64,000 nt of DNA from Candidatus Nealsonbacteria bacterium (GTDB taxonomy: Bacteria > Patescibacteriota > Minisyncoccia > Minisyncoccales > JANBVM01), in NCBI GenBank assembly GCA_047456295.1, contig CP179887.1, positions 623,159-687,158 on the forward strand, read 5' to 3'. Both the position numbers and the translations under genes were made by a program. This document shows positions 26,923-43,454 of the stretch, piece after piece (position 1 is the stretch's first letter; each line of letters opens with the position of its first letter). Under the pieces are notes generated by a model that saw only the letters and a list, made by a program, of their open reading frames with translations, did not search any database and was not told where the DNA came from.

Positions 26923-26954
26923 CAGCTTGTGCTCGGTTCGAGAGACCGAGCCGC
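26923..26954 (+). repeat. module B: T-arm-like hairpin (copy 1)
   Basis: CAGCTTGTGCTCGGTTCGAGAGACCGAGCCGC. Stem CTCGGT/ACCGAG with loop TCGAGAG. Confidence 0.7.
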
Positions 26955-26963
26955 TTATAGCGT

Positions 26964-27034
26964 TAGGGCGACCGAGAGGGGTTCGAATCCTACCGCCGGA
27001 GCAGGCTAGTGCTCGGTTCTTGCGACCGAGCCGC
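26964..27034 (+). repeat. 71-nt direct repeat: tRNA-Asn 3'-end fragment plus module B (left copy)
   Basis: Contains GGTTCGAATCCTACCGCCGGAGC (26980-27002), 22/23 identical to the 3' end of the tRNA at 20362-20384. ~90% identical to 28325-28395. Confidence 0.85.
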
Positions 27035-27041
27035 ATCAAAA

Positions 27042-27071
27042 ATCGCCAAGACGGCGATTTTTTGGTAGAAT
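27042..27071 (+). promoter_or_regulatory. hairpin + T-run + TGGTAGAAT promoter module
   Basis: ATCGCC-aagac-GGCGAT, T6, then extended -10-like TGGTAGAAT (TAGAAT 27066-27071). The ATG of the next gene is 45 nt downstream. Confidence 0.6.
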
Positions 27072-27116
27072 AGAAATAAAAAGTCATAATAAATATAACT
27101 TCAATTAAAAAACAAT

Positions 27117-28247
27117 ATGTCTAAAACAATAATTGCAATCATTGTTATAATCATTGTCGCGGGATTAGGTTATTGGATTTATCAATCAACTTTAGCACCC
27201 GAAGAACTAACTGAAAAAGAACAGGCGTGTATAAATTCTGGAGGAGAGGTATTAACATCATTGTGTTGTAAAGCAACTGGTGATTTCCCAAACCTGTGTC
27301 TCATTGGTCCCTGTGGTTGTTCCCCAGAAAACAGCCATGAAATAAAAGTTTGTGACTGCGGAGAAAAAAAATGTTTTGACGGTAATACCTGTGTACCAGA
27401 AGTATACAGCTTTAATGACTGTATTAAGGCTGGTTATCCAGTAATGGAAAGTTATCCACGCCAATGCAAAACGCCAGATGGGAGAATATTTACAGAAGGA
27501 GAAGAACATTGTATTGCGCCAACTGGCGAAAGTATGAGTTTGTTTGAAGCCATGCAAATCGCCATAACAAGTGAATGTGGCGACCAGCTAAGAAACTACT
27601 TAGAATTTGCTACGTGTAATGCAGATACAGGGACATGGTGGATAGATCTTGATATTGAAAAAGAAGGATGTAATCCTGCCTGCGTCGTAAATATTGCAAC
27701 AAAAGAAGCATCAATAAACTGGAGATGCACAGGTGTTTTAGAGATAAACAGTTTTGATGATTGTGTGGAAGCTGGTTATGCAATACTTCCTCCAATCCCA
27801 GGTGGCTATACTGAATGTAGAACACCTGATGGTAAGGTTTTCTATTTTGAGGAAATAGATGATGCATCCCTGTGTGCAAGAGATGGGGAAGTATTTTCAA
27901 GAGTATCTGATCAATACCTCGACAGTTGCTGCGAAGGATTAAAAGAATGGATACCTATACCGGATACGCGTTTTTCAATCGCAGATGTATGTTATGAAGT
28001 TGGGTTACCATCGGAATCTAACATAGGACTCTGTATAAAGTGTGGGGACGGGGTTTGTGAAAACCATTTGAACTATGATGAAAATCCATGTAATTGCCCA
28101 GAAGACTGTAAAGGGAAAAACAAGTCCATGTTTCAAAGCATAGAAGAATTTTGCCAGAGCAATGACTGGAAAATGTCTCTTTCCAAAGCATGTGAAGAAC
28201 AAGAACCTATTAAGGGTTCTCCAATATGTAAATTATGCGCTTTTTAA
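27117..28247 (+). CDS. membrane-anchored secreted cysteine-rich protein (paralog of 44651..45829)
   Basis: Signal anchor IIAIIVIIIVAGLGYWIY. 10-Cys module ACINSGG..LCCKATGDFPNLCLIGPCGCSPENSH..KVCDCG..KCF. Two FNDC(I/V)xAGY...C(K/R)TPDG repeats. Confidence 0.75.
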   Translation: MSKTIIAIIVIIIVAGLGYWIYQSTLAPEELTEKEQACINSGGEVLTSLCCKATGDFPNLCLIGPCGCSPENSHEIKVCDCGEKKCFDGNTCVPEVYSFNDCIKAGYPVMESYPRQCKTPDGRIFTEGEEHCIAPTGESMSLFEAMQIAITSECGDQLRNYLEFATCNADTGTWWIDLDIEKEGCNPACVVNIATKEASINWRCTGVLEINSFDDCVEAGYAILPPIPGGYTECRTPDGKVFYFEEIDDASLCARDGEVFSRVSDQYLDSCCEGLKEWIPIPDTRFSIADVCYEVGLPSESNIGLCIKCGDGVCENHLNYDENPCNCPEDCKGKNKSMFQSIEEFCQSNDWKMSLSKACEEQEPIKGSPICKLCAF

Positions 28248-28324
28248 AGAAATAGTGAGTAATGAGGTGTGGAGTACCTGCTCTAGAGATTGAACTATTT
28301 CCGAGACCGAACCGCCTACCCCTC

Positions 28325-28395
28325 TAGGGCGACCGAGAGGGGTTCGAATCCTAGCGCAGGAGCAGGCTAGTGCTCGGTTCGAGCAACCGAGCCGC
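28325..28395 (+). repeat. 71-nt direct repeat: tRNA 3'-end fragment plus module B (right copy)
   Basis: TAGGGCGACCGAGAGGGGTTCGAATCCTAGCGCAGGAGCAGGCTAGTGCTCGGTTCGAGCAACCGAGCCGC. Same order and orientation as 26964-27034. Confidence 0.85.
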
Positions 28396-28475
28396 CCAGC
28401 TTATTGCTGGGCGATTTTTATTACCTTGACTTTTCCTAAAAATAGGGGCAGATTTAAGGCAGATAAACACTATTT

Positions 28476-29700
28476 ATGAACCAAAAAGGCTTTATCCAAA
28501 TTCCGTTATTGGTAGCAATTATAGTTTCTATTGCAGCCGTTGCAGGGATCGGTTACGGAGTAGTTGAATATAATAAAACTTCTAACCTGGTTAAAGAGTC
28601 TCAGCAATTAGCCAAAGAAGAGAAATATAATGAGGCAATTGATAAATTAGAATCTGCTAAAAGTGGTTGGGCTACTAATGTTTTAGGAGTAAAAAAACAA
28701 GAAATTGTTAATGAGATAGAAAATAATAAAAAACTCCTTGAGGATAAATCAGAATATGCCCAAGGAATGGAAGAATTTAATAAAGGAAATTGGGAGAAAG
28801 CCAAAGAATTATTATCAAAAGTTTCCGAAATATCCCCTTATTATCAAGATGCGAAAAATAAGATAGAAGAGGCTCAAAAGAAAATAACAGAAAAACAAAT
28901 TGCCGAAGCAGTGGAGAAAACCACAGAAATGACTCAAGAGGAAATGACTAAACTTCAGCTCGAAAGACAAAAAGCTGAAAAACAATGGGCCGAAGCTGAA
29001 ATAAAACTAAAAGTAGAAGGACTGTTTAGAATAGGAAATACATTGCAAGATTATTATAACACAGTTAGAGAGGGAAGAGGGGTAGGTCAAAATTGGTGGT
29101 TGTATGGATATCAAGGAGAAGTAGACTTCGCATCATATCTAGCTAAACATGGTATAGGAGCAGTATATTGGCCAGAATACGAGTCAACGTATCATTCTCT
29201 TACTGGTAGTTCTTCTTGGTTGGATGCTAAAGAGAAATTAGATAATGTTTTGTTCCTCCCCTACACAGCAGCAGTTAGTTATAATGAGTCAGATTATGAA
29301 AAAATCAGAAAAATTCTCGATTTTTTTTAAATTTTACATCAAATATGAGCCTGATTTTAACGAAATATTAAGAGCGCCAGCGGAAACTCTTGGATTAAAG
29401 TCAGGAGACTGTGATGACTGGTCAATTCTCGCAAGCGCGGCATTCGCAGATGCTGGAATAGATTCAGCCATTATGTTTGTGAAAAGCATAGATGGGACGC
29501 AAGCTCATGCCATGGTATTAGTTCAATCTAAAGAGACCTTACCACTTTGGTCTTATTCAGATTTAACTCAGTATGGTCTTCCTAGTGGAAAATGGTGGAT
29601 TATAGAACCACAATTTACTTTTGGACAACAATCCCAGCATCCAGAATGGTTTACTCAATGGAAGTTTGAGGCAGCAGCATTAGTACCAGGTATAAAATAG
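28476..29700 (+). pseudogene. membrane-anchored coiled-coil / transglutaminase-like cysteine protease gene split by a +1 frameshift in a T8 tract
   Basis: ORF 28476..29330 stops inside T8 (29321-29328). The +1 frame continues ...FFKFYIKYEPDFNEILRAPAETLGLKSGDCDDWS...HAMVLV (Cys/His core of transglutaminase-like proteases). Removing one T gives one 407-aa ORF. Confidence 0.6.
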
Positions 29701-29749
29701 CCAAATTTTATAATTAACCTTTATCATTAACATACAAGGAGAAAATACA

Positions 29750-30400
29750 ATGACTGAAAAAACAATAATAGAAGAAATTAAAAAGATGATAACTGATGCT
29801 TGGGATGAGTTTAAAACCTATTATGATAATAAAGCCCCTGAGTATTCAAAGAAATGGAAAGGTCAAAGAGGTGAACTTCAACAAGATCATTGGATTTGTT
29901 GGGATGAACATGATTTATGTTTTCAAGTAGGGAGATTTTTTTATGATAAGTTAAACAAGGAAAAAGAGAAAAACGAAGATTTTTCAGATATAGAGATACA
30001 TTTTGAGAAGAAATTAGACACTATAAACTTTGGAGGTTTTAAGTTCGAAGATAAATTAGATAAGCTAATACTTAAGGATTTCGGAATGAAAAAAGGACCA
30101 AAAATTGATTTAATAATTGCTCATGAGAGCAGTGACGAACCTTTTTTATTATGTGCTGAGGTTAAATGTTTTCGTACAACAGTATCAGACGCAGAAATAG
30201 ATAAAGACATAGAAAAATTGAGAATTATCAAGGAAGAAGGGATAGCCGAAGAAGTTGTTTTTATGGTTTTTGATGATTATTATTTTACACAAAAAAGGAC
30301 TGGAGATAAAATTGAGTCTATTAAATCTAAAGCATCTAACAAAGGAGTTAAAGTATTGTATCATAATTCGAAAAAGAAATTATGCTTATCGGGTTGTTAG
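29750..30400 (+). CDS. hypothetical protein, possible PD-(D/E)xK nuclease fold
   Basis: 216 aa. KIDLIIAHESSDEPFLLCAEVKCF fits D-x16-E-x-K. SD-like AAGGAG upstream. No other recognisable motif. Confidence 0.3.
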   Translation: MTEKTIIEEIKKMITDAWDEFKTYYDNKAPEYSKKWKGQRGELQQDHWICWDEHDLCFQVGRFFYDKLNKEKEKNEDFSDIEIHFEKKLDTINFGGFKFEDKLDKLILKDFGMKKGPKIDLIIAHESSDEPFLLCAEVKCFRTTVSDAEIDKDIEKLRIIKEEGIAEEVVFMVFDDYYFTQKRTGDKIESIKSKASNKGVKVLYHNSKKKLCLSGC

Positions 30401-30556
30401 GCTTAATAGAGAGGATATCATTAATCTTGTAATGTCTGTTTTGGCTCGGAGGGTGGGACGTAATTCGCACTTGGTTTGAAAAAAGGTTTCCAGTAGTTGA
30501 GCCAATTAAATTATTGCTATAGTGGCTAATATAATACTTATGTTTTGAAATCATAA

Positions 30557-30621
30557 TTATCTTTTCCTTATCTTTTCCCTATCTTCTCCTTATCTTTTCA
30601 TTATCTTTCCTTAACTTTTCC
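30557..30621 (+). repeat. six tandem ~11-bp repeats (TTATCTTTTCC)
   Basis: ttatcttttcc / ttatcttttccc / tatcttctcc / ttatcttttca / ttatctttcc / ttaacttttcc, head to tail in a 380-nt ORF-free gap. Confidence 0.85.
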
Positions 30622-30738
30622 TTTTATAAATAATAATTTATCCGAAAAGCTAGTATATAAAGCCAAAACAGGCGAAATCTCATCGGTTTCGCTTTTTTGA
30701 AACTAAGACCGCCCATCGTTGTGCAATTTTTATTTCAG

Positions 30739-30770
30739 CCCGAGATTGTTTCTCGGGTTTTTGGTATAAT
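30739..30770 (+). promoter_or_regulatory. hairpin + T-run + TGGTATAAT promoter module, leaderless geometry
   Basis: CCCGAG-attgttt-CTCGGG, T5, TGGTATAAT (TATAAT 30765-30770). ATG at 30779 is 8 nt after the -10. Confidence 0.65.
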
Positions 30771-30778
30771 GGAGCAAT

Positions 30779-31378
30779 ATGGAGCAAATAATTTCAAAAG
30801 AAGAGCTTGATGAATTAATGAAGATCGAAGGAGAGGTAAGGGGGCTGACATTAAAAGGTTATACAAATTTTATTTTAAAAGAAGAAGGAAAAGAAGGATT
30901 AAAAAGGTTAGAAGACGCAATAACAGAACTCGGTTATCCAATAAAACACAGAGAAATAAAGGCAATGAGTTTTTATCCTGTAGGACTGGATAATCTTCTT
31001 TTACTGTCTATTAAGAAGCTTTTTAATTATGATAACAAAAAATTTCAGGAGATTGGAGAATTTCAGGCTAAATCCCCTTTAATTATTAGACTTTTTGTGA
31101 AATATTTTATTTCTCTTGAAAAAGCAATTGAAGCAGCTCCTAAGATGTGGAAAGTATATTATTCAAACGGAGACCTCAAAGTAACAGATTTTAATAAAGA
31201 AAAAAAGTATGCAATATTAAGGCTTGAAAATTTCCACAATACTCCAATCCATTGTCAAACTGAGAAAGCCTATTTTTCTAGTGTGGCTCGAATAATAGTT
31301 GGAAGTAAGGTAACCTGTGAAGAAACAAAGTGCACTTTTAGAGGTGATGACTATCACGAATTTTTATTAAGATGGTGA
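30779..31378 (+). CDS. V4R/DUF2378-like small-molecule-binding protein (paralog of 50700..51305)
   Basis: 199 aa. C-terminal CEETKCTFRGDDYHEFLLRW resembles the E-x-x-C-x-x-x-G-D-x-x-C-x-F end of V4R domains. Full-length similarity to 50700..51305. Confidence 0.4.
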   Translation: MEQIISKEELDELMKIEGEVRGLTLKGYTNFILKEEGKEGLKRLEDAITELGYPIKHREIKAMSFYPVGLDNLLLLSIKKLFNYDNKKFQEIGEFQAKSPLIIRLFVKYFISLEKAIEAAPKMWKVYYSNGDLKVTDFNKEKKYAILRLENFHNTPIHCQTEKAYFSSVARIIVGSKVTCEETKCTFRGDDYHEFLLRW

Positions 31379-31382
31379 ACTA

Positions 31383-31460
31383 AAACAGGTTCCCGCCCAT
31401 GGGGCGAGGCTCGCTTCTCTAGGTGGCACCTAAGAAGCGGCTAACATCGTTCCCCGGAGC
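31383..31460 (+). repeat. junction core motif split by a 48-nt palindromic insertion
   Basis: AAACAGGTTC (31383-31392) ... 48 nt ... CTAACATCGTTCCCCGGAGC (31441-31460). Confidence 0.8.
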
Positions 31461-31468
31461 TAAGTTAG

Positions 31469-31500
31469 CCCGAGATTGTTTCTCGGGTTTTTAGTTGACA
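31469..31500 (+). promoter_or_regulatory. hairpin + T-run + TTGACA promoter module
   Basis: CCCGAG-attgttt-CTCGGG, T5, AG, TTGACA (31495-31500), 17 nt, TATATT. The downstream gene has a leader with SD AAGGAG. Confidence 0.6.
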
Positions 31501-31575
31501 GACCTAAATAATAAATGTATATTATGGTCAGTAACTTGTAAACAAAATAATAAAAAAAAGGAGAAGTGAAATAAA

Positions 31576-31905
31576 ATGTCTGTATCTATAAATGATGATG
31601 GAAATTTATCGTTCAAGGTAAAAATTCTTCATAATGGGAACAAGAGAATACTTGTTTTACAATTTTTTGCTGGTGAGGGTTACGGAGAAAAAATAGAAAT
31701 TCTGGAAAAGATAAAAGACTTGTTGTCAGATGGCGTGAATAATTTGACAACCCTTGTAACAACCCTTGCACATGATTTTCCTGGAGATGAAACCATTCTC
31801 AATTTACTTAAGGACTTTTCTAAGAAGGATATCATTCCCGGTTATCATGGTATTAACTGGAGTGCGAGTAAGGGGCATACTCTTAATGTGCAACTTTCTA
31901 TATAA
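31576..31905 (+). CDS. hypothetical protein
   Basis: 109 aa, SD AAGGAGAAG 8 nt upstream. No recognisable motif. Confidence 0.5.
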   Translation: MSVSINDDGNLSFKVKILHNGNKRILVLQFFAGEGYGEKIEILEKIKDLLSDGVNNLTTLVTTLAHDFPGDETILNLLKDFSKKDIIPGYHGINWSASKGHTLNVQLSI

Positions 31906-32042
31906 AAAGATTTTTTATAAAAAAACTTTTAAATAAATTTTTTCTTTTTTTTCTTGTTTTTTTCAAATCCATAACTCGCTTGTGAGCTTGAAGAAGCCCG
32001 AAACTACCCAAAAAGGTGGTTTTTGGTTACTCTACCCCCACC

Positions 32043-32075
32043 AAACAGGTTCTAACCTCGTCCAGCCCCCGGAGC
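32043..32075 (+). repeat. junction core motif type 1
   Basis: AAACAGGTTCTAACCTCGTCCAGCCCCCGGAGC. Confidence 0.9.
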
Positions 32076-32220
32076 TATTGAGGCCTGAGCCTTTGGCTCG
32101 GGTTTTTGGTTTTAAAGCTATTCATGTTGATTTTTTCTATGATTTATTGTAATGATAATTTAGGTTGTGAAGATAACCAACCGTAATTTAAAAAGTAAAT
32201 AATGACAGATGTGATGTGAT

Positions 32221-33433: not shown

Positions 33434-33465
33434 AAACAGGTTCTAACCTCGTTCAGTCCTCAGAG
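33434..33465 (+). repeat. junction core motif type 1 (3' part diverged)
   Basis: AAACAGGTTCTAACCTCGTTCAGTCCTCAGAG, preceded by TTTTTTTATTCCAAAACCACCACC. Confidence 0.85.
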
Positions 33466-33520: not shown

Positions 33521-33558
33521 CCAATTTATGGTTCTAAACGCGTCCAATAGAGGGAGCC
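33521..33558 (+). repeat. junction core motif type 2
   Basis: CCAATTTATGGTTCTAAACGCGTCCAATAGAGGGAGCC. Sister copies at 40282 and 46509. Confidence 0.8.
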
Positions 33559-33598: not shown

Positions 33599-33606
33599 GA
33601 AGAAAA

Positions 33607-33636
33607 ATCGCCTTAGAGGCGGTTTTTTGGTAGAAT
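33607..33636 (+). promoter_or_regulatory. hairpin + T-run + TGGTAGAAT promoter module, leaderless geometry
   Basis: ATCGCC-ttaga-GGCGGT, T6, TGGTAGAAT (TAGAAT 33631-33636). ATG at 33645 is 8 nt after the -10. Confidence 0.65.
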
Positions 33637-33644
33637 TGAGAAAT

Positions 33645-34304
33645 ATGGATAATCTTGCTAAAAAGAAAATCGAGGAGATTTTCTCATCAGGTCAAGTCGT
33701 CGCTGAAATGGATAAGACGACACACGATATCTTTCCTGTTTCCTTAGATCTGGATGAGGGAAAAAGTTTACAGAAATTTGTTCAGGATGAAGACCCTCAG
33801 ACAGTGATAGAAATTGGACTTGGCTATGGCTTTGCTGCGTTGAATGTTTTTGCGGCGAAAAATTTATCTAAAGAGAGTGATTTTCGATTCATAACTATTG
33901 ATCCAAACCAAGATAGCCGGTTTTCAAATGTCGGACTCCAACTGTTACGGGAAGTCGACGTTTTTGAGTATGTCGAATTTCATAACGATTCATCGGAGCT
34001 TGTTTTGCCTCGTCTTATCATAGCAAAAGAGAAAGCTGACTTTGCGGTAGTGGATGGCAATCACAGATTCGAGCACGTATTTGTTGACTTATTTTTTCTA
34101 GGGCGTATCTTAAAACCAGGAAGCTTAATCTTTCTAGATGACATGCAATTGCTGGGGATTAAGAAAGCTGTTTCGTTTTTTGTGAAAAATTTTGAATGGA
34201 AAATAGAAAAAGAGGCGCATAGCTCAAAGTATCATAAATGGGCAGTATTACGAACACGCCCCGAAGCTCTTGAACGAAGTTACGATTCTTTTACTGATTT
34301 CTAG
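33645..34304 (+). CDS. class I SAM-dependent methyltransferase (Methyltransf_24 / O-MT family-3-like)
   Basis: Motif I VIEIGLGYGFAAL. DFAVVDGNHRFEHVFVDL and IFLDD blocks. The listed TTG start at 33627 lies inside the promoter, so ATG 33645 is preferred. Confidence 0.75.
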   Translation: MDNLAKKKIEEIFSSGQVVAEMDKTTHDIFPVSLDLDEGKSLQKFVQDEDPQTVIEIGLGYGFAALNVFAAKNLSKESDFRFITIDPNQDSRFSNVGLQLLREVDVFEYVEFHNDSSELVLPRLIIAKEKADFAVVDGNHRFEHVFVDLFFLGRILKPGSLIFLDDMQLLGIKKAVSFFVKNFEWKIEKEAHSSKYHKWAVLRTRPEALERSYDSFTDF

Positions 34305-34400: not shown

Positions 34401-34407
34401 TTAAGAA

Positions 34408-34437
34408 ATCGCCAGCAGGGCGGTTTTTTGTTAAGAT
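34408..34437 (+). promoter_or_regulatory. hairpin + T-run + -10 module, leaderless geometry
   Basis: ATCGCC-agcag-GGCGGT, T6, GTTAAGAT. ATG at 34444 is 6 nt after TAAGAT. Confidence 0.55.
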
Positions 34438-34443
34438 GTAAAT

Positions 34444-34650
34444 ATGAAAAAGAAAAAAGCTATTAGTAAAGAGGTTTTTGATAAGGAGATTGCAATGTGT
34501 AAAACACTATCTAAAGAAAAGAAAGGAAGGTGTAATTGGGGTAAATGCAAAGATTGTGGAGTTATCCCTCTTTTATATAAATTACACAAGGGACAACTAT
34601 TAGAAAAACCAGCAGAGATTAAGAAAGTTAAGGGTAAAATTCTTAAATAA
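34444..34650 (+). CDS. small Lys-rich Cys-containing protein
   Basis: 68 aa, C-x13-CNWGKCKDCG. No known family recognised. Confidence 0.45.
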   Translation: MKKKKAISKEVFDKEIAMCKTLSKEKKGRCNWGKCKDCGVIPLLYKLHKGQLLEKPAEIKKVKGKILK

Positions 34651-35679: not shown

Positions 35680-35712
35680 AAACAGGTTCTAACATCGTTC
35701 GTCCCCCGGAGC
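35680..35712 (+). repeat. junction core motif type 1
   Basis: AAACAGGTTCTAACATCGTTCGTCCCCCGGAGC, preceded by TTTTTTTATTCCAAAATCTCCACC. Confidence 0.9.
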
Positions 35713-35744
35713 AGGTTAGTGTTCGGTTCGAGCGACCGAGACGC
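35713..35744 (+). repeat. module B: T-arm-like hairpin
   Basis: AGGTTAGTGTTCGGTTCGAGCGACCGAGACGC. Confidence 0.75.
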
Positions 35745-35750
35745 ATTAAA

Positions 35751-35779
35751 TCGCCATTAGGGCGATTTTTTGGTAGGAT
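35751..35779 (+). promoter_or_regulatory. hairpin + T-run + TGGTAGGAT promoter module, leaderless geometry
   Basis: TCGCC-attag-GGCGA, T6, TGGTAGGAT. ATG at 35786 is 6 nt after the -10. Confidence 0.65.
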
Positions 35780-35785
35780 GGAAAT

Positions 35786-36511
35786 ATGAAAGAAGAAACC
35801 AAAACACAAAAACTAATGGGTATAAAGGATTTATTCCGAAATTCTTGGAATATCTACAAAAAGGATTTCAAGAAGTTTTTAGTAATTGCGGTTATTTTTT
35901 TTGGAATTACTGGTTTGACAACGACTTTCATTGGCTCAGAAATTCCTGAAGCAGGGGTTCAGTCTGTACCTAATTCTGCTTTTATGCCTACCGGAGCTGA
36001 ACCATTTTTTACTGTGCCTTGGTATCTGTTTTTTCTCATTATTTTAGCCACAATGTTTATAGGTATCTTGGGAAGTGCCTCTCTTGTTTCTGCGGTTAAA
36101 GAGGTTCCTAAAGATTGGGGAGTTAAAGGAGCACTTAAAGAAGGCTGGTCTAAATATTGGCCCTTCTTTTTGGTTTCTCTATTAACTGGATTAATTATTG
36201 GGCTGGGATTTCTGTTTTTAATAGTTCCTGGTATTATTTTTGCAGTTTGGTTTGGCTTTTCTATTTATACAGTCGTCTGCGAAGACAAAAGGGGGTTCAA
36301 GGCTCTTTCCAGAAGTAAGGAATTGGTTAAGGGCTACTGGTGGCCGACAGCAAAAAGAGTTTTTGTTCTTATGATTATCACCATTCCTTTTTCTCTGGGT
36401 TCGCAATTTATTCCTTATCTTGGCCAGTTTGCCTATATGATTCTCTTTACTCCATTTTCTATAATTTACAACTATCTTATCTACCAAAATCTTAAAGAAA
36501 TAAAAGGTTAA
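35786..36511 (+). CDS. polytopic membrane protein (DUF975-like), unknown function
   Basis: 241 aa with ~6 TM helices. Abuts the next ORF (stop 36509-36511, ATG 36512). Confidence 0.55.
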   Translation: MKEETKTQKLMGIKDLFRNSWNIYKKDFKKFLVIAVIFFGITGLTTTFIGSEIPEAGVQSVPNSAFMPTGAEPFFTVPWYLFFLIILATMFIGILGSASLVSAVKEVPKDWGVKGALKEGWSKYWPFFLVSLLTGLIIGLGFLFLIVPGIIFAVWFGFSIYTVVCEDKRGFKALSRSKELVKGYWWPTAKRVFVLMIITIPFSLGSQFIPYLGQFAYMILFTPFSIIYNYLIYQNLKEIKG

Positions 36512-37849: not shown

Positions 37850-37885
37850 CTAAAATAGAGGTAGAAAATTCTTTTTGTTTTGGAT

Positions 37886-38437: not shown

Positions 38438-38441
38438 AGTT

Positions 38442-38792
38442 ATGACAAGAACAAAATTGCTTTATTTGGGAATAGGAATACTAATCTTTTTGTTGGTTTT
38501 AATTTTTACTACCAATTTGAAGTATTCTCTTTGTTCTGACCACTATACGGTTTACTGCTGGCAGGAATCGAAAACTGAACAGCCGAATCCAATTATCATT
38601 ATCAAAGAGCATATTCCTTGTGCTAATAACAGAGATTGCTTTGTTGCTTTGAAATTGGAGAGTTTTTGTAGCCCAGGTCATGCCAACCTATTGAAATGTG
38701 ATTGTGCAAGATATTATTGCGGAGATGACGGATATTGCAAAGGATGCGTTTGCCCCTTGTACTCTCCAGCTTATTGGCTGTTAGTTGATTAA
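38442..38792 (+). CDS. membrane-anchored Cys-rich protein co-transcribed with the ECF sigma factor
   Basis: 116 aa. N-terminal TM LLYLGIGILIFLLVLIF. External part has 10 Cys. 4 nt after the sigma stop. No cytoplasmic anti-sigma domain visible. Confidence 0.5.
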   Translation: MTRTKLLYLGIGILIFLLVLIFTTNLKYSLCSDHYTVYCWQESKTEQPNPIIIIKEHIPCANNRDCFVALKLESFCSPGHANLLKCDCARYYCGDDGYCKGCVCPLYSPAYWLLVD

Positions 38793-38794
38793 AT

Positions 38795-38822
38795 GCAACC
38801 TTTTTCGACCAAAGGCGTTATA
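38795..38822 (+). promoter_or_regulatory. second ECF-type promoter candidate
   Basis: GCAACC-N15-CGTTATA. Overlaps a nested hairpin (CCTTTTTCGACC 38799-38810 / GGTCGAAAAAGG 38853-38864; inner GAGCATC/GATGCTC). Confidence 0.6.
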
Positions 38823-38891
38823 TTTACAGAGCATCAAACGATGCTCGCAAAGGTCGAAAAAGGTAATATAACTATCTAAATATCTAGGGTT

Positions 38892-40133
38892 ATGAAAAAA
38901 GAAGATTTAATTAAAAAATTAGAAAATATAGAAAGTCCAAGCATTGAAATTCAAAGCCACAAGCAAAGGCTTAAATTGGCTTTGCTTAACTCTGGATATT
39001 TTAAAGAGAAAACTATTATGTTTTGGACAAAAAGATTAGTTCCTGCTGGCGTTGTCCTGGCTTTAACTTTAATTGTAGGCTTTACAGTAGTCCAGCCAAA
39101 ACTACAGATAGCCAGAGCTATGGAAATCGCCAGGAATGACCCTCAGATTAAAGAATTAATAGAGGAATACGGAGTAGAGATTAAAGAGGTAAAGCTACAG
39201 GACGGCAAAGCTTTTGTTCTGCTTACTCTTCCAGGTGAGAATTTACCTCCTGAACTGGAAGAAAGAATCCTCGGCACTGAGGAAGAAGCCGCTACTAAGG
39301 GTGGAATGCGCGGGCTCGGCCAGTTTTACATTTCTTACCGAGATCCTGCAACAGGCGAGATAATACAATCTTCGGGCTCGGTTGCTGAAATAAACCTTAA
39401 GACAAAGAAAGTAGAAAAGATTGAATTGATTGAAAGACTACATATTGATATTACTCCCTTAACCGAGGAAGAAAAAGCTAGAGCAATTGAAATTGCCAAA
39501 ACCGAACCAAAGATTCAGGAAATGATTCCTGATTTAGAAGAGAGAGAAGTAATTGTAAAACCAATGCTTCCTCTCAAACTCCGCTTAGACGAAGATCCTG
39601 ATAATGGAATGGAAATTACTTCTGTTGACCCAAATGAGCAAAAAAGAGCTAATGTAATTTTCAAGTCCGATGAATATCAGGATACAATCACGGTTAATCT
39701 GACCACAGGCAAAGTGGAAGGAGCAGCGTCATTTTCTACTGGAAGTAAAATTGAAAAGCCCGAATTTGAGTATCCCTATCCCATTAAGCCCAAGTTTTAT
39801 CTTGAGCCGAACAGAGTTAAAATCCTGTCCGATGAAGGACAGGTAAAAGTCTATGAAGGTTTTACTAAACCAGCTGATCAAAAAGAGATATTTGCGGCAA
39901 TGCTAAAGGAAATTGGCGAGAAAGATGAGAGAATTAAAGATTTGCTGAAAGATGATGATTATGAGATTCTGGAGATTATCGGGTCGAAACCGATTATTAC
40001 CAAAACCGAAACAATGACAGAAATAAGAGTAGAAACAGTTACTGTAGTTTTAGAAAAAGAAAGCACAGGAGAGAATTACTGGATTACCATAGATTTGGCA
40101 AACAACATCGTAAAATCAATAGAAAAAGAGTAA
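38892..40133 (+). CDS. single-pass membrane protein with short cytoplasmic N-terminus, possible anti-sigma/sensor partner
   Basis: 413 aa. ~45 cytoplasmic residues, TM LVPAGVVLALTLIVGFTVV, large acidic external domain. Preceded by the ECF-type promoter. Confidence 0.4.
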   Translation: MKKEDLIKKLENIESPSIEIQSHKQRLKLALLNSGYFKEKTIMFWTKRLVPAGVVLALTLIVGFTVVQPKLQIARAMEIARNDPQIKELIEEYGVEIKEVKLQDGKAFVLLTLPGENLPPELEERILGTEEEAATKGGMRGLGQFYISYRDPATGEIIQSSGSVAEINLKTKKVEKIELIERLHIDITPLTEEEKARAIEIAKTEPKIQEMIPDLEEREVIVKPMLPLKLRLDEDPDNGMEITSVDPNEQKRANVIFKSDEYQDTITVNLTTGKVEGAASFSTGSKIEKPEFEYPYPIKPKFYLEPNRVKILSDEGQVKVYEGFTKPADQKEIFAAMLKEIGEKDERIKDLLKDDDYEILEIIGSKPIITKTETMTEIRVETVTVVLEKESTGENYWITIDLANNIVKSIEKE

Positions 40134-40281
40134 GCAGGGAATAATTTCTTAGTTGTAAGCCAAATTTCAAAACCGCTCCAATTAAATTTGGGCGGTTTTA
40201 TCCTTACCCAAAATGTCAGGTGATAGTTAATAATTCTTTCATTTGTTGGAGTGTGCCTTCCAGATAGCCAAATACTTTTTT

Positions 40282-40318
40282 CCAATCTAAGGTTCTAAAA
40301 TCGTCCGATAGACCGAGC
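40282..40318 (+). repeat. junction core motif type 2
   Basis: CCAATCTAAGGTTCTAAAATCGTCCGATAGACCGAGC. Confidence 0.8.
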
Positions 40319-40350
40319 AGACTTGTGCTCGGTTCGAGGGACCGAGACAC
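40319..40350 (+). repeat. module B: T-arm-like hairpin
   Basis: AGACTTGTGCTCGGTTCGAGGGACCGAGACAC. Confidence 0.75.
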
Positions 40351-40373
40351 CTTCGGTTCGAATCATAGCCCCA
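40351..40373 (+). repeat. tRNA 3'-end-like fragment
   Basis: CTTCGGTTCGAATCATAGCCCCA (T-loop GGTTCGAATC plus acceptor-like tail). No 5' half present. Confidence 0.6.
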
Positions 40374-40384
40374 CAAATGTCAAG

Positions 40385-40413
40385 ATCAAGCTTGAATGAG
40401 CTTGATTTTTTTT
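40385..40413 (+). terminator. hairpin + T-run
   Basis: ATCAAGCT-tgaatg-AGCTTGAT followed by T7. Confidence 0.7.
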
Positions 40414-40496
40414 GTAGTATTTTCTAATATCTACTTATAGTTAAAGAGGATGGTTCTTTAACAAAATAAAAATAAGAAGGAAGTGAAAAATAGAAA

Positions 40497-41474
40497 ATGT
40501 CTGAATTTAAGGAAATAAAAATTTCTGATTTAGATCCAGAAGAATTTATAAAAGAAAAAATAGAAGAAATATCAAAAATAGTTGGAAAGAATGTAAAAGC
40601 AATTACAGCTTTATCTGGTGGAGTTGACTCTTCAGTCACAACAATGCTGGGTTATAAAGCATTAAGCGATAGGCTTAAAGTATATTTTATAGATAATGGC
40701 TTAATGAGAGAAAATGAACCCGAGCAGGTTGCGTCAATCTTTAAAAAATTAGGCGTTACCGTGGAAGTGATAGATGCTAAAAAGGAATTCTTTACTGCGC
40801 TGAAAGGGATTAGTGATCCAGAACAAAAAAGAGAAGCAATTACTCAAGCTTTCTATGGAAATGTTTTTCGAAAAGTCATAGAAAGTAGCGGAGCGAGATA
40901 TTTATTGCAGGGAACTATTCTTACCGACATCGAGGAAACAGTAGCTGGCATTAAACGACAGCATAATGTATTTGAGCAGATAGGGATTGATCCTGAAAAA
41001 GCTTTTGGATATAGAATAATTGAACCACTAATAGAAATCCGTAAGGATAGTGTAAGAAAAGTGGCAAAAGCCTTAGGTTTACCTGAGGATATATATAATA
41101 GAATGCCATTTCCAGGACCAGCACTTGCTGCAAGAGTAATAGGTGAAGTTACTTTTGAAAAAATAGAAATCGTTAGGAAGGCAACAACTATTCTTGAAGG
41201 AGAATTAAAATTAGAAAACACAGGCGCTTTTCAATATATGGCGATCCTCCACGAAGATAAAGTAACAGGAATGCGAAACGGTAAAAGAGATTTCGGTTAT
41301 CAGATTGAATTGAGATGTTGGGATAGCATTGATGCAAGAGTAGCAACGCCGACAGAATTATCGTGGGATATATTGAAAAGGTTATCCAAAAGAATAGCAA
41401 CTGAAGTTTCGGGTGTTGTCAGTGTAACATATAATATAACAACAAAACCACCTTCAACCATGGAAGCTATATAA
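40497..41474 (+). CDS. guaA: GMP synthase ATP-pyrophosphatase subunit (GuaA subunit B type), no glutaminase partner adjacent
   Basis: PP-loop ALSGGVDSSV. LQGTILTDIEET. EPLIEIRKDSVRKVAKALGLPEDIYNRMPFPGPALAARVIGEVT. C-terminal dimerisation end NITTKPPSTMEAI. Confidence 0.85.
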   Translation: MSEFKEIKISDLDPEEFIKEKIEEISKIVGKNVKAITALSGGVDSSVTTMLGYKALSDRLKVYFIDNGLMRENEPEQVASIFKKLGVTVEVIDAKKEFFTALKGISDPEQKREAITQAFYGNVFRKVIESSGARYLLQGTILTDIEETVAGIKRQHNVFEQIGIDPEKAFGYRIIEPLIEIRKDSVRKVAKALGLPEDIYNRMPFPGPALAARVIGEVTFEKIEIVRKATTILEGELKLENTGAFQYMAILHEDKVTGMRNGKRDFGYQIELRCWDSIDARVATPTELSWDILKRLSKRIATEVSGVVSVTYNITTKPPSTMEAI

Positions 41475-41535
41475 ATTTCTTATTAACAATATAGTGGCAA
41501 TCTTTAGCCACTTCTTTTTTTATTAAACCATCATT

Positions 41536-41568
41536 AAACAGGTCCTAACATCGTCCAGCCCCTGGAGC
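41536..41568 (+). repeat. junction core motif type 1
   Basis: AAACAGGTCCTAACATCGTCCAGCCCCTGGAGC. Confidence 0.9.
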
Positions 41569-41576
41569 TCGTAAAG

Positions 41577-41606
41577 ATCGCCTTAGAAGCGGTTTCCTGA
41601 TAGAAT
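41577..41606 (+). promoter_or_regulatory. hairpin + -10 module, leaderless geometry
   Basis: ATCGCC-ttagaa-GCGGT, TTCC, TGATAGAAT. ATG at 41615 is 8 nt after TAGAAT. Confidence 0.6.
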
Positions 41607-41614
41607 GAAAAAAT

Positions 41615-42043
41615 ATGAATAGAAAACAAATCAAAATCTGTAGCGCCTGTTTATTAGGAATAAGGTGTAGGTATGATGGAAAAAGTAAACCGGATGATAA
41701 AATTATTGAACTACTTAAAAAGGAAACCTTGATTCCTGTTTGCCCAGAACAGTTAGGTGGTCTATCAACACCAAGAGAACCAGCAGAACAAAAAGGGAAT
41801 AAGGTTATTACTAAATCGGGGAAAGATGTTACCGAAAGTTTTAAGAAGGGAGCAGAACAGGTTTTGGAATTAGCGGAATTATTTGATATCAAAGAGGCAA
41901 TTTTGAAACAGAAGAGTCCATCCTGTGGATGCGGACAAATTTATGATGGGAGTTTTTCCAGCAGGATTATTAAAGGAGATGGAGTAACCACCTCTCTATT
42001 AAAAACCAACGGTATTAAAGTTATAACCGAGGAAGATTTATAA
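41615..42043 (+). CDS. DUF523 / TudS-like (2-thiouracil desulfurase family) protein
   Basis: CSACLLGIRCRYDG N-terminal motif and internal SPSCG, characteristic of DUF523. Confidence 0.75.
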   Translation: MNRKQIKICSACLLGIRCRYDGKSKPDDKIIELLKKETLIPVCPEQLGGLSTPREPAEQKGNKVITKSGKDVTESFKKGAEQVLELAELFDIKEAILKQKSPSCGCGQIYDGSFSSRIIKGDGVTTSLLKTNGIKVITEEDL

Positions 42044-42056
42044 ACATTCAGTTATT

Positions 42057-42089
42057 AAACAGGTTCTAACATCGTCCAGCCCCCGGAGC
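42057..42089 (+). repeat. junction core motif type 1 (consensus copy)
   Basis: AAACAGGTTCTAACATCGTCCAGCCCCCGGAGC. Confidence 0.92.
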
Positions 42090-42098
42090 TCGTAAAAA

Positions 42099-42128
42099 AT
42101 CGCCTTAGGGGCGGTTCTTTGGTAGGAT
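42099..42128 (+). promoter_or_regulatory. hairpin + TGGTAGGAT promoter module
   Basis: ATCGCC-ttagg-GGCGGT, TCTT, TGGTAGGAT (42123-42128). The GTG start at 42156 is 27 nt downstream. Confidence 0.55.
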
Positions 42129-42155
42129 GAAACTATATAAGATTAATTTTTATCT

Positions 42156-42710
42156 GTGCAACTCTATTTTGTTACATCTAGCGAAAACAAAGTTAAAGAA
42201 GCAGAGGGCATTCTGGGTTTTGAGGTTGATAAGATATCTTTAGATATCAACGAGATTCAGACCCTTGAGGTAGAAGAAGTAGTTGAAGATAAGGCCAAGA
42301 GGGCTTTTGAGCAAGTTAAAAAACCGGTGATGGTTGAAGATACAGGGTTCTACATTGAGGCCTGGCAAGGCTTCCCGGGAGCGTTGGTTAAATGGATTTT
42401 GAAAACTCTTGATAACGAGGGGTTATGTTTGGCTTTTCAAGAAAAGAACCGCACTGTCACCGCTAAAACCTCTATTTGTCTTTACAACGGCAAAGAGGCG
42501 AAGGTATTTACGGGCGAAATTAAAGGCCAGATACCAGAGAAACCAAGGGGTGAAGGTGGTTTCGGATGGGACCCAATTTTCCAACCAGAAGGCCATAACA
42601 AAACTTTTGCAGAAATGAGCCAGGAAGAAAAAGATTTTATGTCTATGAGAAAGATTGCCCTGAATAAAATGAAACAGTTTTTAAAGGTAGACCCTGAGTT
42701 TTTACAATGA
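42156..42710 (+). CDS. rdgB: non-canonical purine NTP pyrophosphatase (RdgB/HAM1/ITPase)
   Basis: GTG start. FVTSSENKVKEAEGILG, EDTGFYIEAWQGFPG, GFGWDPIFQPEGHNKTFAEMSQEEKDFMSMRKIAL. Confidence 0.88.
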   Translation: MQLYFVTSSENKVKEAEGILGFEVDKISLDINEIQTLEVEEVVEDKAKRAFEQVKKPVMVEDTGFYIEAWQGFPGALVKWILKTLDNEGLCLAFQEKNRTVTAKTSICLYNGKEAKVFTGEIKGQIPEKPRGEGGFGWDPIFQPEGHNKTFAEMSQEEKDFMSMRKIALNKMKQFLKVDPEFLQ

Positions 42711-42720
42711 ATTAAGTGTT

Positions 42721-42752
42721 AAACAGGCTCTAACCTCGTCCACCCCCGGAGC
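42721..42752 (+). repeat. junction core motif type 1
   Basis: AAACAGGCTCTAACCTCGTCCACCCCCGGAGC. Confidence 0.9.
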
Positions 42753-42761
42753 TCGCATTTC

Positions 42762-42818
42762 CCACCTTATCGGTTAGGTGGTTTTTTGGTTGACCAATTA
42801 TTTTTTAGATGTTAATAT
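42762..42818 (+). promoter_or_regulatory. hairpin + T-run + TTGACC/TAATAT promoter of the csp gene
   Basis: CCACCT-tatcggtt-AGGTGG, T6, GG, TTGACC (42790-42795), 17 nt, TAATAT (42813-42818). Gives a ~100-nt 5' UTR. Confidence 0.6.
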
Positions 42819-42921
42819 TATTTACATAAGATAGTTGCCTAATGAAAATTTAGTCGAGTTTATTCAGGGAACTAAACTTTAGGATAAAACCTTAAAATAT
42901 TAATTAATTTATATCACAATC

Positions 42922-43119
42922 ATGGAAGGAACAATTAAAAACCTTACAGATAAAGGATTTGGATTTATTAACGTTGATGGTGAAGAGAAAGATTTATTCT
43001 TTCACAGCAACGAACTTAAGGGTGTAACCTACGATGAGTTAAAAGTAGGTGATAGAGTGTCTTTCGAAAAAGCTGATTCTCCAAAGGGTCCTAACGCAAC
43101 AAACGTAACCCGCCTTTAA
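42922..43119 (+). CDS. cspA: cold-shock protein (CspA family)
   Basis: 65 aa, KGFGFI (RNP1) and LFFH (RNP2). Confidence 0.92.
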   Translation: MEGTIKNLTDKGFGFINVDGEEKDLFFHSNELKGVTYDELKVGDRVSFEKADSPKGPNATNVTRL

Positions 43120-43242
43120 GAATTAATTCGGTAAATCAAATCAATGAGATCAAGCCCATTCTTGGGCTTTTTTTCATAATCAGTTAGGTGGTTTTTGATA
43201 AAATATAGTAAGGGTTTTAATTAATAACTAAACAATTAGTTT

Positions 43243-43389
43243 ATGATGCGTAAAAGATGGGTATTTGGATTTCTGGGATTTTTTGGAATAAAAGGAATAA
43301 TAGGAATTATAAATAGAAATTATTTAGAAGCTCTTTGGATTCTTTGGCTGGTATGGTTTCTTTGTTTCATACCCAAGAGAAAGTTATAA
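43243..43389 (+). CDS. unlisted 48-aa hydrophobic peptide
   Basis: MMRKRWVFGFLGFFGIKGIIGIINRNYLEALWILWLVWFLCFIPKRKL. Below the 60-aa ORF cutoff. Its stop TAA (43387-43389) overlaps the start of the junction motif. Confidence 0.4.
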   Translation: MMRKRWVFGFLGFFGIKGIIGIINRNYLEALWILWLVWFLCFIPKRKL

Positions 43390-43421
43390 AACAGGTTCTA
43401 ACCTCGTCCAGCCCCCGGAGC
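43389..43421 (+). repeat. junction core motif type 1 (consensus copy)
   Basis: AAACAGGTTCTAACCTCGTCCAGCCCCCGGAGC. Confidence 0.92.
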
Positions 43422-43454
43422 AGGCTAGTGCTCGGTTCTGGACGACCGAGACGT
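43422..43454 (+). repeat. module B: T-arm-like hairpin
   Basis: AGGCTAGTGCTCGGTTCTGGACGACCGAGACGT. Confidence 0.75.

Follow-up and report, generated by a model that had tools for sequence, protein, structure and literature searches.

Arrays of small co-oriented gene blocks, each ended by a conserved recombination site, are known from integrons (attI/attC) and from SCC elements (rlmH), and in both the sites far outnumber the recombinase genes. SCC elements use large serine recombinases (LSRs) and form tandem arrays that include recombinase-less pseudo-elements. LSR sites such as those of Listeria A118/LI, phiC31 and Bxb1 are about 50 bp long and form an imperfect dyad around a central dinucleotide. 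Their inner motif stays in register, while the outer (zinc-ribbon) motif lies 5 bp farther out in attP than in attB (PMC3783163). Islander/TIGER islands and Prochlorococcus tycheposons have a tRNA anchor at one end and att remnants in one orientation throughout; in tRNA-anchored islands newer arrivals are believed to displace older elements, and some degenerate elements have no integrase (bioRxiv 10.1101/2020.12.28.424599; PMC4383910). Islander/TIGER islands and tycheposons are overwhelmingly based on tyrosine integrases and leave true partial copies of the tRNA as scars. The SSV1-type ('suicidal') archaeal tyrosine integrases have their attachment site inside their own gene and target a tRNA gene, so that integration splits the integrase gene and inactivates the enzyme; this arrangement has been described as restricted to archaea (PMC8371274).

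The window analysed here, a 64-kb stretch of DNA, contains at least 17 junctions of about 55-65 bp each downstream of a tRNA-Asn gene, with blocks of one to six genes between them; the joints span a 27-kb chain of such blocks. As in integron and SCC arrays, the blocks are small, co-oriented and each closed by a recombination site. The anchor is a tRNA, whereas it is attI in integrons and rlmH in SCC, and the blocks here are at most candidate mobile cassettes. Unlike integrons, the locus has no IntI, no attC R/L box structure and no folded bottom-strand site, and inspection for the attC consensus (RYYYAAC / GTTRRRY) gave only a 5-bp CTAAC/GTTAG complement in one copy. The junctions thus do not have the R''-L''...L'-R' sites of integron attC, and the associated enzyme family is a serine recombinase. 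A tRNA at one end and co-oriented remnants are present, as in Islander/TIGER islands and tycheposons, but the integrase is absent and essential genes lie inside; the array may be a tRNA-anchored island. It differs from those systems in its scar, a pseudo-tRNA arm that carries a 5-nt insertion, in its very small blocks (0.5-6.5 kb, core genes included) and in its hosts, mostly Patescibacteria-type MAGs.

Each junction has two parts. On the left stands a 33-nt core or, alternatively, a stretch of 23 nt copied from the tRNA-Asn 3' end; on the right, several junctions have a hairpin-forming repeat, module B. The reading that we favour, with a probability of about 75%, is that module B represents the right-hand (P'-type) attachment-site arm of LSRs that insert at the very 3' end of tRNA genes. 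The core is an attP-type left arm that doubles as coding sequence for the C-terminal tail of the recombinase.

Junctions behind the anchor tRNA-Asn

The anchor is a tRNA-Asn(GUU) on the + strand at 20051-20384, consisting of exon 1 (20051-20084), a group I intron (20085-20346) and exon 2 (20347-20384, the last base being G73). It was identified by an Rfam RF00028 match, in-silico splicing and identity to a tRNA of another genome: after splicing, 72/72 positions matched the intron-less tRNA-Asn(GUU) of L109. ARAGORN did not detect the gene because the 262-nt group I intron (RF00028) interrupts it; the genuine tRNA of the original prediction is thus real as a tRNA-Asn(GUU), in an intron-split form that ARAGORN does not find. 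The gene ends in GGTTCGAGTCCTACCGCCGGAG, which makes up the attB-type left arm. The tRNA arm is followed by a decayed module B and an intrinsic terminator (J0, 20386-20416, + strand, from alignment and sequence), and the decayed copy predicted after the tRNA 3' end was confirmed by this alignment.

About 17 copies of the core, AAACAGGTTCTAACNTCGTCC-N7-GGAGC, lie between 26.9 and 47.2 kb. All junctions located here are on the + strand. Cores followed by module B were found at 26890-26954 (J1; core 26890-26922, module B 26923-26954), 35680-35744 (J10; core 35680-35712, module B 35713-35744), where the reverse complement reads ..SRSLEPNTNLLRGTNDVRTCLVEILE*, and 43389-43454 (J15; perfect core 43389-43421, module B 43422-43454). 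At 40290-40350 (J11) a variant core (GGTTCTAAAATCGTCCGATAGACCGAGC) precedes module B at 40319-40350. Two junctions have the tRNA-Asn 3' end as their left half: 26980-27034 (J2; tRNA copy 26980-27002, 22/23 identical to the tRNA, module B 27003-27034) and 28341-28395 (J3; tRNA copy 28341-28363, module B 28364-28395, terminator 28393-28413). Cores without module B occur at 32043-32075 and at 33434, 34338, 34659, 35203, 41536, 42057, 42721, 45856 and 47119, and variant arms without it at 33530 and 46518; each of these copies is followed by a terminator hairpin plus a promoter-like TTGACA or TGGTAGAAT. A split core at 31383-31460 has a 48-nt insertion between GGTTC and CTAAC and a terminator hairpin in place of module B.

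Left and right arms combine freely, and the mosaic breakpoint is fixed at GGAG|C. Between J5 and J15 the left arms have 100% identity and the right arms 30%; between J2 and J10 the values are 39% for the left arms and 83% for the right. The blocks between junctions contain essential genes, among them ProRS, MltG and a GMP synthase subunit; such genes do not fit a simple accessory-cassette model. A tblastn search of the 64-kb window detected only tail relics of ~14-36 aa, and neither a recombinase gene nor any fragment above about 35 aa.

Module B and its hairpin

Module B is present as six good copies and one decayed copy, every one on the + strand of the 64-kb window, confirming it as a recurrent repeat. 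When up to 3 mismatches were allowed, the pattern CTCGGTTCGAGNGACCGAG matched at 26932, 27012, 28373, 35722 and 40328 on the + strand only and had 0 matches in 100 shuffles. The full 32-nt consensus matched at 26923, 27003, 28364, 35713 and 40319; the copy at 43422 is genuine, with a loop 1 nt longer. The repeat had been said always to follow GGAGC, which is true of 5/7 copies, the exceptions being 26923 (after GGAGT) and 40319 (after CGAGC). The T-loop sequence GGTTCGAG, also predicted, was found in four of the six good copies and is replaced at 27012 (GGTTCTTG) and 43431 (GGTTCTGG). The stem is conserved and the T-loop-like loop is not; in other genomes GAGA or ACAGA-type loops take its place. 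There, module B follows tRNA-Asn, tRNA-Gln and core copies, with a conserved box TTCG(A/G)GAGACCGA.

The original prediction also considered a tRNA-like RNA used for transcript processing, in the manner of tRNA punctuation. Spelled out, this would be a T-arm-mimicking RNA in 3' UTRs, recognised by RNase P, RNase Z, a T-loop-binding or a CCA-adding enzyme, that would punctuate or stabilise transcripts. All copies do lie on the transcribed strand between stop codon and terminator. The stem is kept, with double changes that preserve pairing in 3/12 pairs when module B of six genomes is compared, and in other genomes the hairpin runs into a terminator-like T-run. The same comparison, however, gave an RNAalifold covariation term of +0.59, and covariation among the window copies was not significant (92/500 shuffles reached the observed score). 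Module B had no Rfam match at E <= 1, ARAGORN reported nothing, and folding energies were no better than those of shuffles (z from -0.7 to -1.9). The acceptor-stem partner is absent, the tRNA-fragment copies have, as judged by sequence, an unpaired 5' strand in the T-stem, and the T-loop-like loop is missing in 2/6 window copies and in other lineages. The GGTTCGA box is accounted for by a DNA-level model with no need for RNA. A processing or punctuation RNA is therefore unsupported and, in our judgement, highly improbable.

None of the window copies of module B has the T-run of an intrinsic terminator, and a separate terminator lies 5-45 nt downstream. The hairpin is followed by (C/G)ATATTTT in L009, L019, L061, L086 and L101. 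It may also act as a transcription stop for the tRNA or the upstream gene, as in those other genomes.

The recombinase family and its attachment site

In reverse complement, the core codes for the C-terminal tail (..LLRGLDDVRT..) that marks a widespread LSR family. Translation in this direction, from the start of module B through the core, gave NTNLLRGTNDVRTCLVEILE and STSLLRGLDEVRTC, which match the C-termini of the LSRs P0002 and P0096, and the variable N of the core falls on the third base of the D/E codon. In another genome (L030), a 540-aa protein with Resolvase, Recombinase and Zn_ribbon_recom domains, as in known LSRs, runs into the motif. The peptide ..RLEP..IYSQNPxLLR is common to all 120 homologues listed for this protein, which fall into three C-terminal classes: a stop, read-through into a tRNA (..DSNPD..SYH), and ..ALDDVRTALQGITG... 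The conserved tail continues past the motif (..ALQGITGSSAFAF..), and the motif is therefore native to the recombinase gene.

This last result bears on the possibility that core and module B are intergenic mosaic repeats of the REP/BIME or MITE kind, spreading or kept as terminator/promoter modules, and that recombinases merely target them. Such repeats would be consistent with the high copy number, intergenic position, single orientation and mosaic module combinations, with the tight coupling to terminators and TTGACA or TGGTAGAAT promoters, and with the rarity of recombinase genes nearby. Against them stand the peptide running past the motif and the clustering of copies downstream of one tRNA whose acceptor sequence they bear; terminal inverted repeats and target-site duplications were not seen. 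We regard this explanation as extremely improbable.

The attP of the family sits in the 3' end (last ~100 nt) of its own recombinase gene, on the strand opposite to the tRNA direction. Read in the tRNA direction, the site of an intact member is [GGTTC(T/G)AAC-N-TCGTCC-N7-GG|AG] [C A.... TGGAC ....], of which the left arm encodes ..LLR-G-L-D-D/E-V-R-T.. and the right arm ..Y-S-Q-N-P-x-L-L. Relatives were found in three states: an intact gene with core and crossover, a gene fused to a tRNA 3' end (Asn, Gln, Tyr, Ser and others), and complete elements. Among 83 metagenome recombinase loci, 43 abut a convergent tRNA 3' end (Asn 11, Gln 15, Tyr 4, others) and at least 20 have the core within an intact gene end, as in L151, where AAACAGGTTCTAACGTCGTCCAGTCCGTGGAGC is followed by ATCGTTGGACTTTGAGAG. 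Complete elements of 7-11 kb, arranged as tRNA, recombinase and then a core with matching tail, were present in L125, L140, L146, L136 and L194. Core copies in other genomes lie downstream of, and in the same orientation as, a tRNA whose acceptor strand is matched by their tails: the longest common substring averaged 5.30, compared with 3.99 in shuffles (shuffle maximum 4.35). The tail match and the complete elements were both predictions of the LSR reading, and both were found. The 33-nt motif is unchanged in MAGs assigned to many phyla, and a recombinase is present in only 3/117 motif-bearing 8-kb blocks of other genomes.

The geometry of the site follows the published LSR rule. In recombinase-borne sites (n = 24), GTCCA at -13..-9 mirrors TGGAC at +9..+13 around a dyad centre GG|AG. 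GTCC is in register between core and tRNA, and the core has its GGTTC box exactly 5 nt farther out from the crossover than the tRNA does (a 5-nt MAFFT gap), fitting the attP/attB shift. The core had been read as contributing to partial tRNA 3' halves; a decayed tRNA half was rejected in favour of an attP-type arm coding for the recombinase tail. Module B carries GGTTCGAG at +16..+23, the mirror position of the GGTTC box (GGTTCGAACC is a palindrome), so that in the window junctions an outer GGTTC..AAC box is mirrored by GGTTCGAG(AG)ACC. At +9..+13, in its inner part, module B reads AGTGC, a poor match (2/5 positions of the expected TGGAC), and its outer box has a 3-nt insertion relative to the palindrome. 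The site fits the description of LSR sites as imperfect dyads of about 50 bp around a central dinucleotide, with a weak inner box on the right, and module B, rather than the core alone, is a putative recognition half-site that may be decayed or diverged. That the recombinase would cut and exchange the site is indirectly supported by the fixed GGAG|C breakpoint and by attL/attR pairs around complete elements. A cognate recombinase with module B encoded in its 3' end was looked for and none was found.

Module B could instead be host sequence from the B' side of attB, native to tRNA-Asn/Gln as a 3' trailer or a terminator, and either copied with the 23-nt tRNA fragments by identity-based, tyrosine-integrase-type integrations or displaced as attR to the far end of each element. 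In L109, L061, L043, L019 and L086 it directly follows an intact tRNA-Asn or tRNA-Gln with no adjacent recombinase; in five lineages the hairpin is followed by a terminator-like CATATTTT; and J2 and J3, with ~55 nt of tRNA fragment plus module B, resemble classical displaced direct repeats. However, the GGTTCGAG box lies at the attP-type distance (+16..+24) and not 5 bp closer, as expected of a B'-type arm, and the first 9-11 nt of module B resemble the recombinase-encoded right arm (A..(C/T)TAG..). L086 also has one right arm of >60 nt after both the tRNA and a core copy, so the incoming DNA carried the arm if recombination was conservative. A host trailer is therefore considered unlikely.

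Formation of the array and its meaning

Under the favoured LSR reading, a crossover at about G71/A72 of the tRNA would join the tRNA to the right arm and the recombinase body and would leave the core behind at the element's other end. The outer box recognised by the recombinase would be GGTTCGA, the T-loop sequence of the tRNA; the element site would therefore need this box on both arms, 5 bp farther out, and the T-loop look of module B would arise because GGTTCGAG is the right-arm copy of the box. The recombinase body would since have been lost from the window, leaving the junctions alone. Compared with other LSRs, the system is unusual in having a tRNA 3' end as attB with the T-loop sequence itself as outer box, in leaving its attP-type arm in many recombinase-less copies, and in placing attP within its own coding sequence, so that integration exchanges the last ~20-35 codons. 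Unlike the SSV1-type integrases, this bacterial-type serine recombinase loses only a short C-terminal tail, and the tail swap could be a built-in directionality switch.

As the window has no recombinase gene and core genes lie between the joints, growth of the array through repeated recombinase-mediated insertion is inferred. Seeing the repeats as att scars of successive integrations was essentially right, as sites of a tRNA-targeting LSR, though the core is not a tRNA half. We know of no canonical LSR that recombines attL-type or attP-type sites with attP, and the in-array junctions of core or tRNA fragment with module B therefore need non-canonical events or later rearrangement. More tentatively, and less likely than not, the junctions might be live sites of a serine-recombinase analogue of the integron, with recombinase-less cassettes moved in trans and docking at the tRNA 3' end. 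Each cassette would then open with a right arm, either module B or a terminator/promoter module, and close with a core, and a recombinase encoded elsewhere would move it. As right arms are interchangeable, each insertion would regenerate the docking site, which would explain why many Patescibacteria-type genomes have 5-15 cassettes arrayed behind tRNA-Asn, Gln, Trp, Tyr and His.

The 33-nt motif, which earlier resembled an unknown RNA, is now accounted for. It belongs to an unusual LSR family whose targets are tRNA 3' ends and whose attP is part of the recombinase coding sequence; a review ascribes such an arrangement to archaeal tyrosine integrases alone (PMC8371274). In the arm borne by the element, the inner part varies together with the acceptor stem of the tRNA that is targeted (Asn, Gln, His, Trp, Tyr, Ser). 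The family therefore amounts to a natural set of enzyme/attP/attB triplets that match one another, and could help to understand and re-engineer the specificity of serine integrases. Mechanisms of gene flux in tiny-genome bacteria are poorly known, and if the recombinase-less cassettes are mobile, they would provide such bacteria with an integron-like platform for gene exchange.

Hairpin copies and the interrupted tRNA-Asn

A pattern search of the window recovered the CTCGGT-loop-ACCGAG hairpin of module B on the + strand only, at 26932, 27012, 28373, 35722 and 40328, with no occurrence in 100 shuffles. A sixth copy with a loop longer by 1 nt was located at 43431, and a decayed copy occupied 20386-20416. 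The loop was TCGAG.G in four copies and TCTTGCG and TCTGGACG in the other two. The stem was thus conserved and the loop was not, contrary to the original prediction of a GGTTCGAG T-loop in the hairpin.

The tRNA preceding the decayed copy was genuine, as the original prediction had it, yet it is interrupted by a group I intron, which was matched by Rfam. ARAGORN reported only a tRNA-Ser at 9121 in the window and missed the interrupted tRNA-Asn. In-silico removal of 20085-20346 yielded a tRNA-Asn(GUU) identical at 72 of 72 positions to the tRNA-Asn of L109, a locus from another genome in which the otherwise identical gene has no intron. The 262-nt intron splits the anticodon loop between U35 and U36 (CCUGU/intron/UAAGC).

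The 3' end of tRNA-Asn recurs as two 23-nt copies, at 26980 and 28341. An extra GACCGAG box (..TAGGGCGACCGAGAGG) lies directly before each of them (26942-27028 and 28300-28390), giving three such boxes within 90 nt; the extra box could be a site for an accessory protein.

Architecture of the junctions in the window

Repeat finding and pattern searches identified the left-hand junction module, the core, as AAACAGGTTCTAACNTCGTCC-N7-GGAGC (33 nt), with 13 matches in the interval 26.9-47.2 kb and a further four copies there that are variant or split. Every copy was intergenic and on the + strand, and usually started a few bases from the upstream stop codon. To the right of GGAGC, one of three alternatives was present: module B, an AATCGCC..GGCG-type hairpin or a CCCGAG..CTCGGG-type hairpin. 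Both of these hairpin types come with a T-run and with TGGTAGAAT or TTGACA as a promoter-like sequence. Sites resembling terminators were enriched in the junction region (33 observed vs 13.7 ± 3.0 expected). Left and right parts were freely combined, with a sharp breakpoint between GGAG and C. For example, identity between junctions J5 and J15 was 100% for the left part and 30% for the right; between J2, a tRNA 3'-end copy with module B, and J10, a core with module B, the left part showed 39% and the right 83%.

A terminator-promoter module, AAATCGCC-loop-GGCG(A/G)TTTTTTGGTAGAAT, occurred at 27040-27090, 33603-33651, 34404-34456, 35746-35798, 41573-41625, 42095-42147, 46552-46604 and 51370-51420. 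Its hairpin sequence itself is conserved, and the module is also present in other Patescibacteria loci.

Among the genes between the junctions are those for ProRS, a Liv-type ABC transporter, MltG/YceG, an ECF sigma factor, the GMP synthase ATP-PPase subunit, Ham1, CspA and NUDIX. The junction region is not a plain accessory island. Exact-protein look-ups with three window proteins, aimed at population polymorphism, returned only short Logan contigs, in which the gene order was unchanged. The sequence is also present in the metagenome runs DRR463593 and DRR310880. Paralogous cysteine-rich secreted proteins with no Pfam match are encoded at 27117-28247 (376 aa) and 44651-45829 (392 aa); the genes share about 80% nucleotide identity over the first ~280 nt, upstream sequence included, and homologues adjoin core motifs at three loci elsewhere (L104, L003 and L078).

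Other repeats were also seen in the window. A large array at 57500-62100 (periods of 783 and 1533 nt, 83-100% identity between copies), in a stretch with higher G+C (about 47%) and negative GC skew, probably represents a - strand gene for a repetitive surface protein. At least 14 diverged tandem units at 2900-4450, 66-156 nt apart and 60-80% identical, are probably parts of a single repetitive coding region, and three to five paralogous segments at 10970-16190 (~1050-nt spacing, 61-81% identical) suggest a tandem family of similar genes.

The core and a family of large serine recombinases

The reverse complement of the core reads in one frame as L-R-G-L-D-D/E-V-R-T-C, with the variable N at the third codon position. 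At L030, a locus from another genome, the motif lies at the end of an opposite-strand 540-aa protein with Resolvase, Recombinase and Zn_ribbon_recom domains. Its many homologues share ..RLEP..(E)IYSQNPxLLR and then fall into three divergent C-terminal classes, which (a) stop after ..LLR, (b) continue as ..DLDSNQDTLLQRxMSYH, the translated reverse complement of a tRNA T-arm, or (c) continue as ..ALDDVRTALQGITGSSAFAF.., the core-encoded tail, followed by conserved peptide beyond the core. Since the class (c) tail goes on as conserved peptide, the core is a native part of the recombinase gene. This, together with the variable distance to the promoter, led us to reject, as the primary explanation, a promoter upstream element or a transcription-factor site, an idea prompted by the frequent TTGACA or TGGTAGAAT downstream of the core. 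A + strand small ORF (MKQVLTSS..) was also rejected because most copies lack the start codon, and an integron attC was ruled out after the core sites had been inspected, and on account of the type of recombinase.

No recombinase body was detected in the window by tblastn with the family proteins; the only matches were tail relics at the junctions, such as NTNLLRGTNDVRTCLVEILE at 35723-35664. In other genomes, recombinase genes were rare near core copies, being present in 3 of 117 blocks among the matches listed. When 83 metagenome loci bearing the family were surveyed, the recombinase 3' end adjoined a convergent tRNA in 43, the partners being Asn (11), Gln (15), Tyr (4), Ser (4), Leu (3), His (2), Trp (2), Met (1) and Ala (1). 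An intact recombinase gene end with the core inside was present in at least 20 of the 83, for instance AAACAGGTTCTAACGTCGTCCAGTCCGTGGAGC/ATCGTTGGACTTTGAGAGTAG at L151. In recombinase loci among L120-L204 (e.g. L137, L142 and L120), the last ~60 nt of the CDS also form an opposite-strand hairpin with covarying stems and a T-run directly after the tRNA; apparently this dual-use 3' end gives the tRNA a new terminator upon integration.

The consensus of 24 aligned right arms was CA.t..tGGAcTTtg.GagtA, in which TGGAC at +9..+13 mirrors GTCCA at -13..-9 and thereby places the centre between GG and AG, i.e. at tRNA G71/A72. GTCC occupies equal positions in core and tRNA (..GAGTCCTAC..), and the start of GGTTC is at -25 for the core versus -20 for the tRNA, where MAFFT independently placed the 5-nt gap. 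For serine integrases, in-register binding by the recombinase domain and an attP zinc-ribbon motif lying 5 bp farther out are established (PMC3783163); judged from these alignments, the offset between core and tRNA is this attP/attB rule. As the outer box GGTTCGAACC is palindromic, GGTTCGA.. should recur in an attP-type right arm, at about +16..+25. In module B, GGTTCGAG occupies +16..+23, and the inner box of the module is a poor match. Module B would then resemble a T-loop because the enzyme recognises the T-loop DNA sequence of its target. An origin of GGTTCGAG in module B from the RLEP box was rejected, since that box lies ~85 nt away in the alignment with intact genes.

Junctions in other genomes and comparison with known islands

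Scanning one genome per species for the 20 specified bases of the core returned more than 117 stretches, which among the matches listed came mostly from Patescibacteria-type MAGs. Some contigs were binned as Omnitrophota, Elusimicrobiota, Scalindua, Zixibacteria, Acidobacteria and others, and short-contig bins may be wrong; the L029 array has an archaeal label and looks bacterial. Between matches only the motif was conserved and the flanks were unrelated. Scans of viral contigs for the core and the module B box gave three core matches, the rest being chance matches in GC-rich coding DNA, and a literature search with the motif string found no relevant match. When the fetched loci were compared all against all in search of cassette indels, the sole long match was a 6.46-kb tandem duplication (99.8% identical) within the contig of L019/L098 (CAYZSL010000005.1, 27033-39954), inside a tRNA-Gln-anchored array with at least 15 core copies. 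Its breakpoint does not coincide with a junction, and the duplication may be either genuine or a product of the assembly.

Over its inner 7-10 nt the core is identical to the 3' acceptor strand of the target tRNA, with GGAGC for Asn, CGCAGC for Gln and GGCACCCC for His (L154 vs L147). Were the core the far end of integrated elements, copies would be expected downstream of the tRNA, on the same strand and with its acceptor sequence. In 8-kb genome blocks holding a tRNA, we found tRNA-Gln with seven core copies ending ..CCCCAGC (L019), tRNA-Asn with three to seven ending ..GGAGC (L111, L061 and L043) and tRNA-Trp with two ending ..CCCCTGCCA (L070). The longest common substring of tRNA end and core tail averaged 5.30, against 3.99 in 200 shuffles (maximum 4.35). 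Loci with a tRNA-adjacent recombinase had, as predicted, a core with matching tail at the far end, at tRNA-to-core distances of 7.3 kb (L125, 0 mismatches), 10.2 kb (L140), 10.8 kb (L146), 8.4 kb (L136) and 8.6 kb (L194). These complete elements encode primase/Toprim, Replic_Relax, TrwB-like or helicase/methylase proteins.

Elsewhere, module B reads AGGC(T/C)(A/T)GTG, stem, TTCG(A/G)GAGACCGA(G/A), stem, and follows tRNA-Asn (L109, L061 and L043), tRNA-Gln (L019 and L086) or core copies (L009, L060, L086, L101 and L110). The box is conserved and the flanking stems vary (AGCCT/AGGCT, AGGCG/CGCCT, ACGG/CCGT, GAGAGG/CCCTC and CTCGG/CCGAG). Recombinase-borne right arms are of like design, with stems TTGAGAG/CTCTCAA, TCGAGCG/CGCTCGA and TTGGGCG/CGCCCGA around GTACAAAC, then a T-run. 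A T-run also follows module B in five lineages, where by its sequence the hairpin looks like a terminator of the tRNA or upstream gene and carries the recognition box in the loop. The original prediction had offered, as one alternative, a T-arm-mimicking RNA used in transcript processing. Formal support from covariation was weak: across six genomes, double changes occurred in 3 of 12 pairs and the covariation term was positive, and among the window copies the observed score was reached by 92 of 500 shuffles. Folding z-scores of module B were unremarkable, and Rfam matched only the group I intron and the tRNA-Ser (window at gathering thresholds; 20-48 kb at E <= 1). The RNA reading was left unsupported, while the other alternative, scars of successive integrations, was supported and can be narrowed to probable attachment-site junctions of large serine recombinases.

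Junctions inside the array that join core and module B (attP-like) or tRNA fragment and module B (attL-like) are not canonical attP x attB products. At L111 and L086 the same sequence follows the tRNA as follows the core copies, as expected if right arms travel with cassettes. On this basis, an integron-like process in which right arms travel with cassettes and the docking site is regenerated at each insertion is put forward as a tentative, rather doubtful reading.

The feature in the window is probably a tRNA-anchored chain of integration junctions, as are Islander/TIGER islands and tycheposons. It differs from these in its probable origin from a large serine recombinase family, in having attP inside the enzyme's own gene, and in an element-borne arm that mimics both T-arm and acceptor of the tRNA at the 5-bp offset characteristic of serine integrases. 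An attP within the integrase gene has been described solely for archaeal tyrosine 'suicidal' integrases (PMC8371274).
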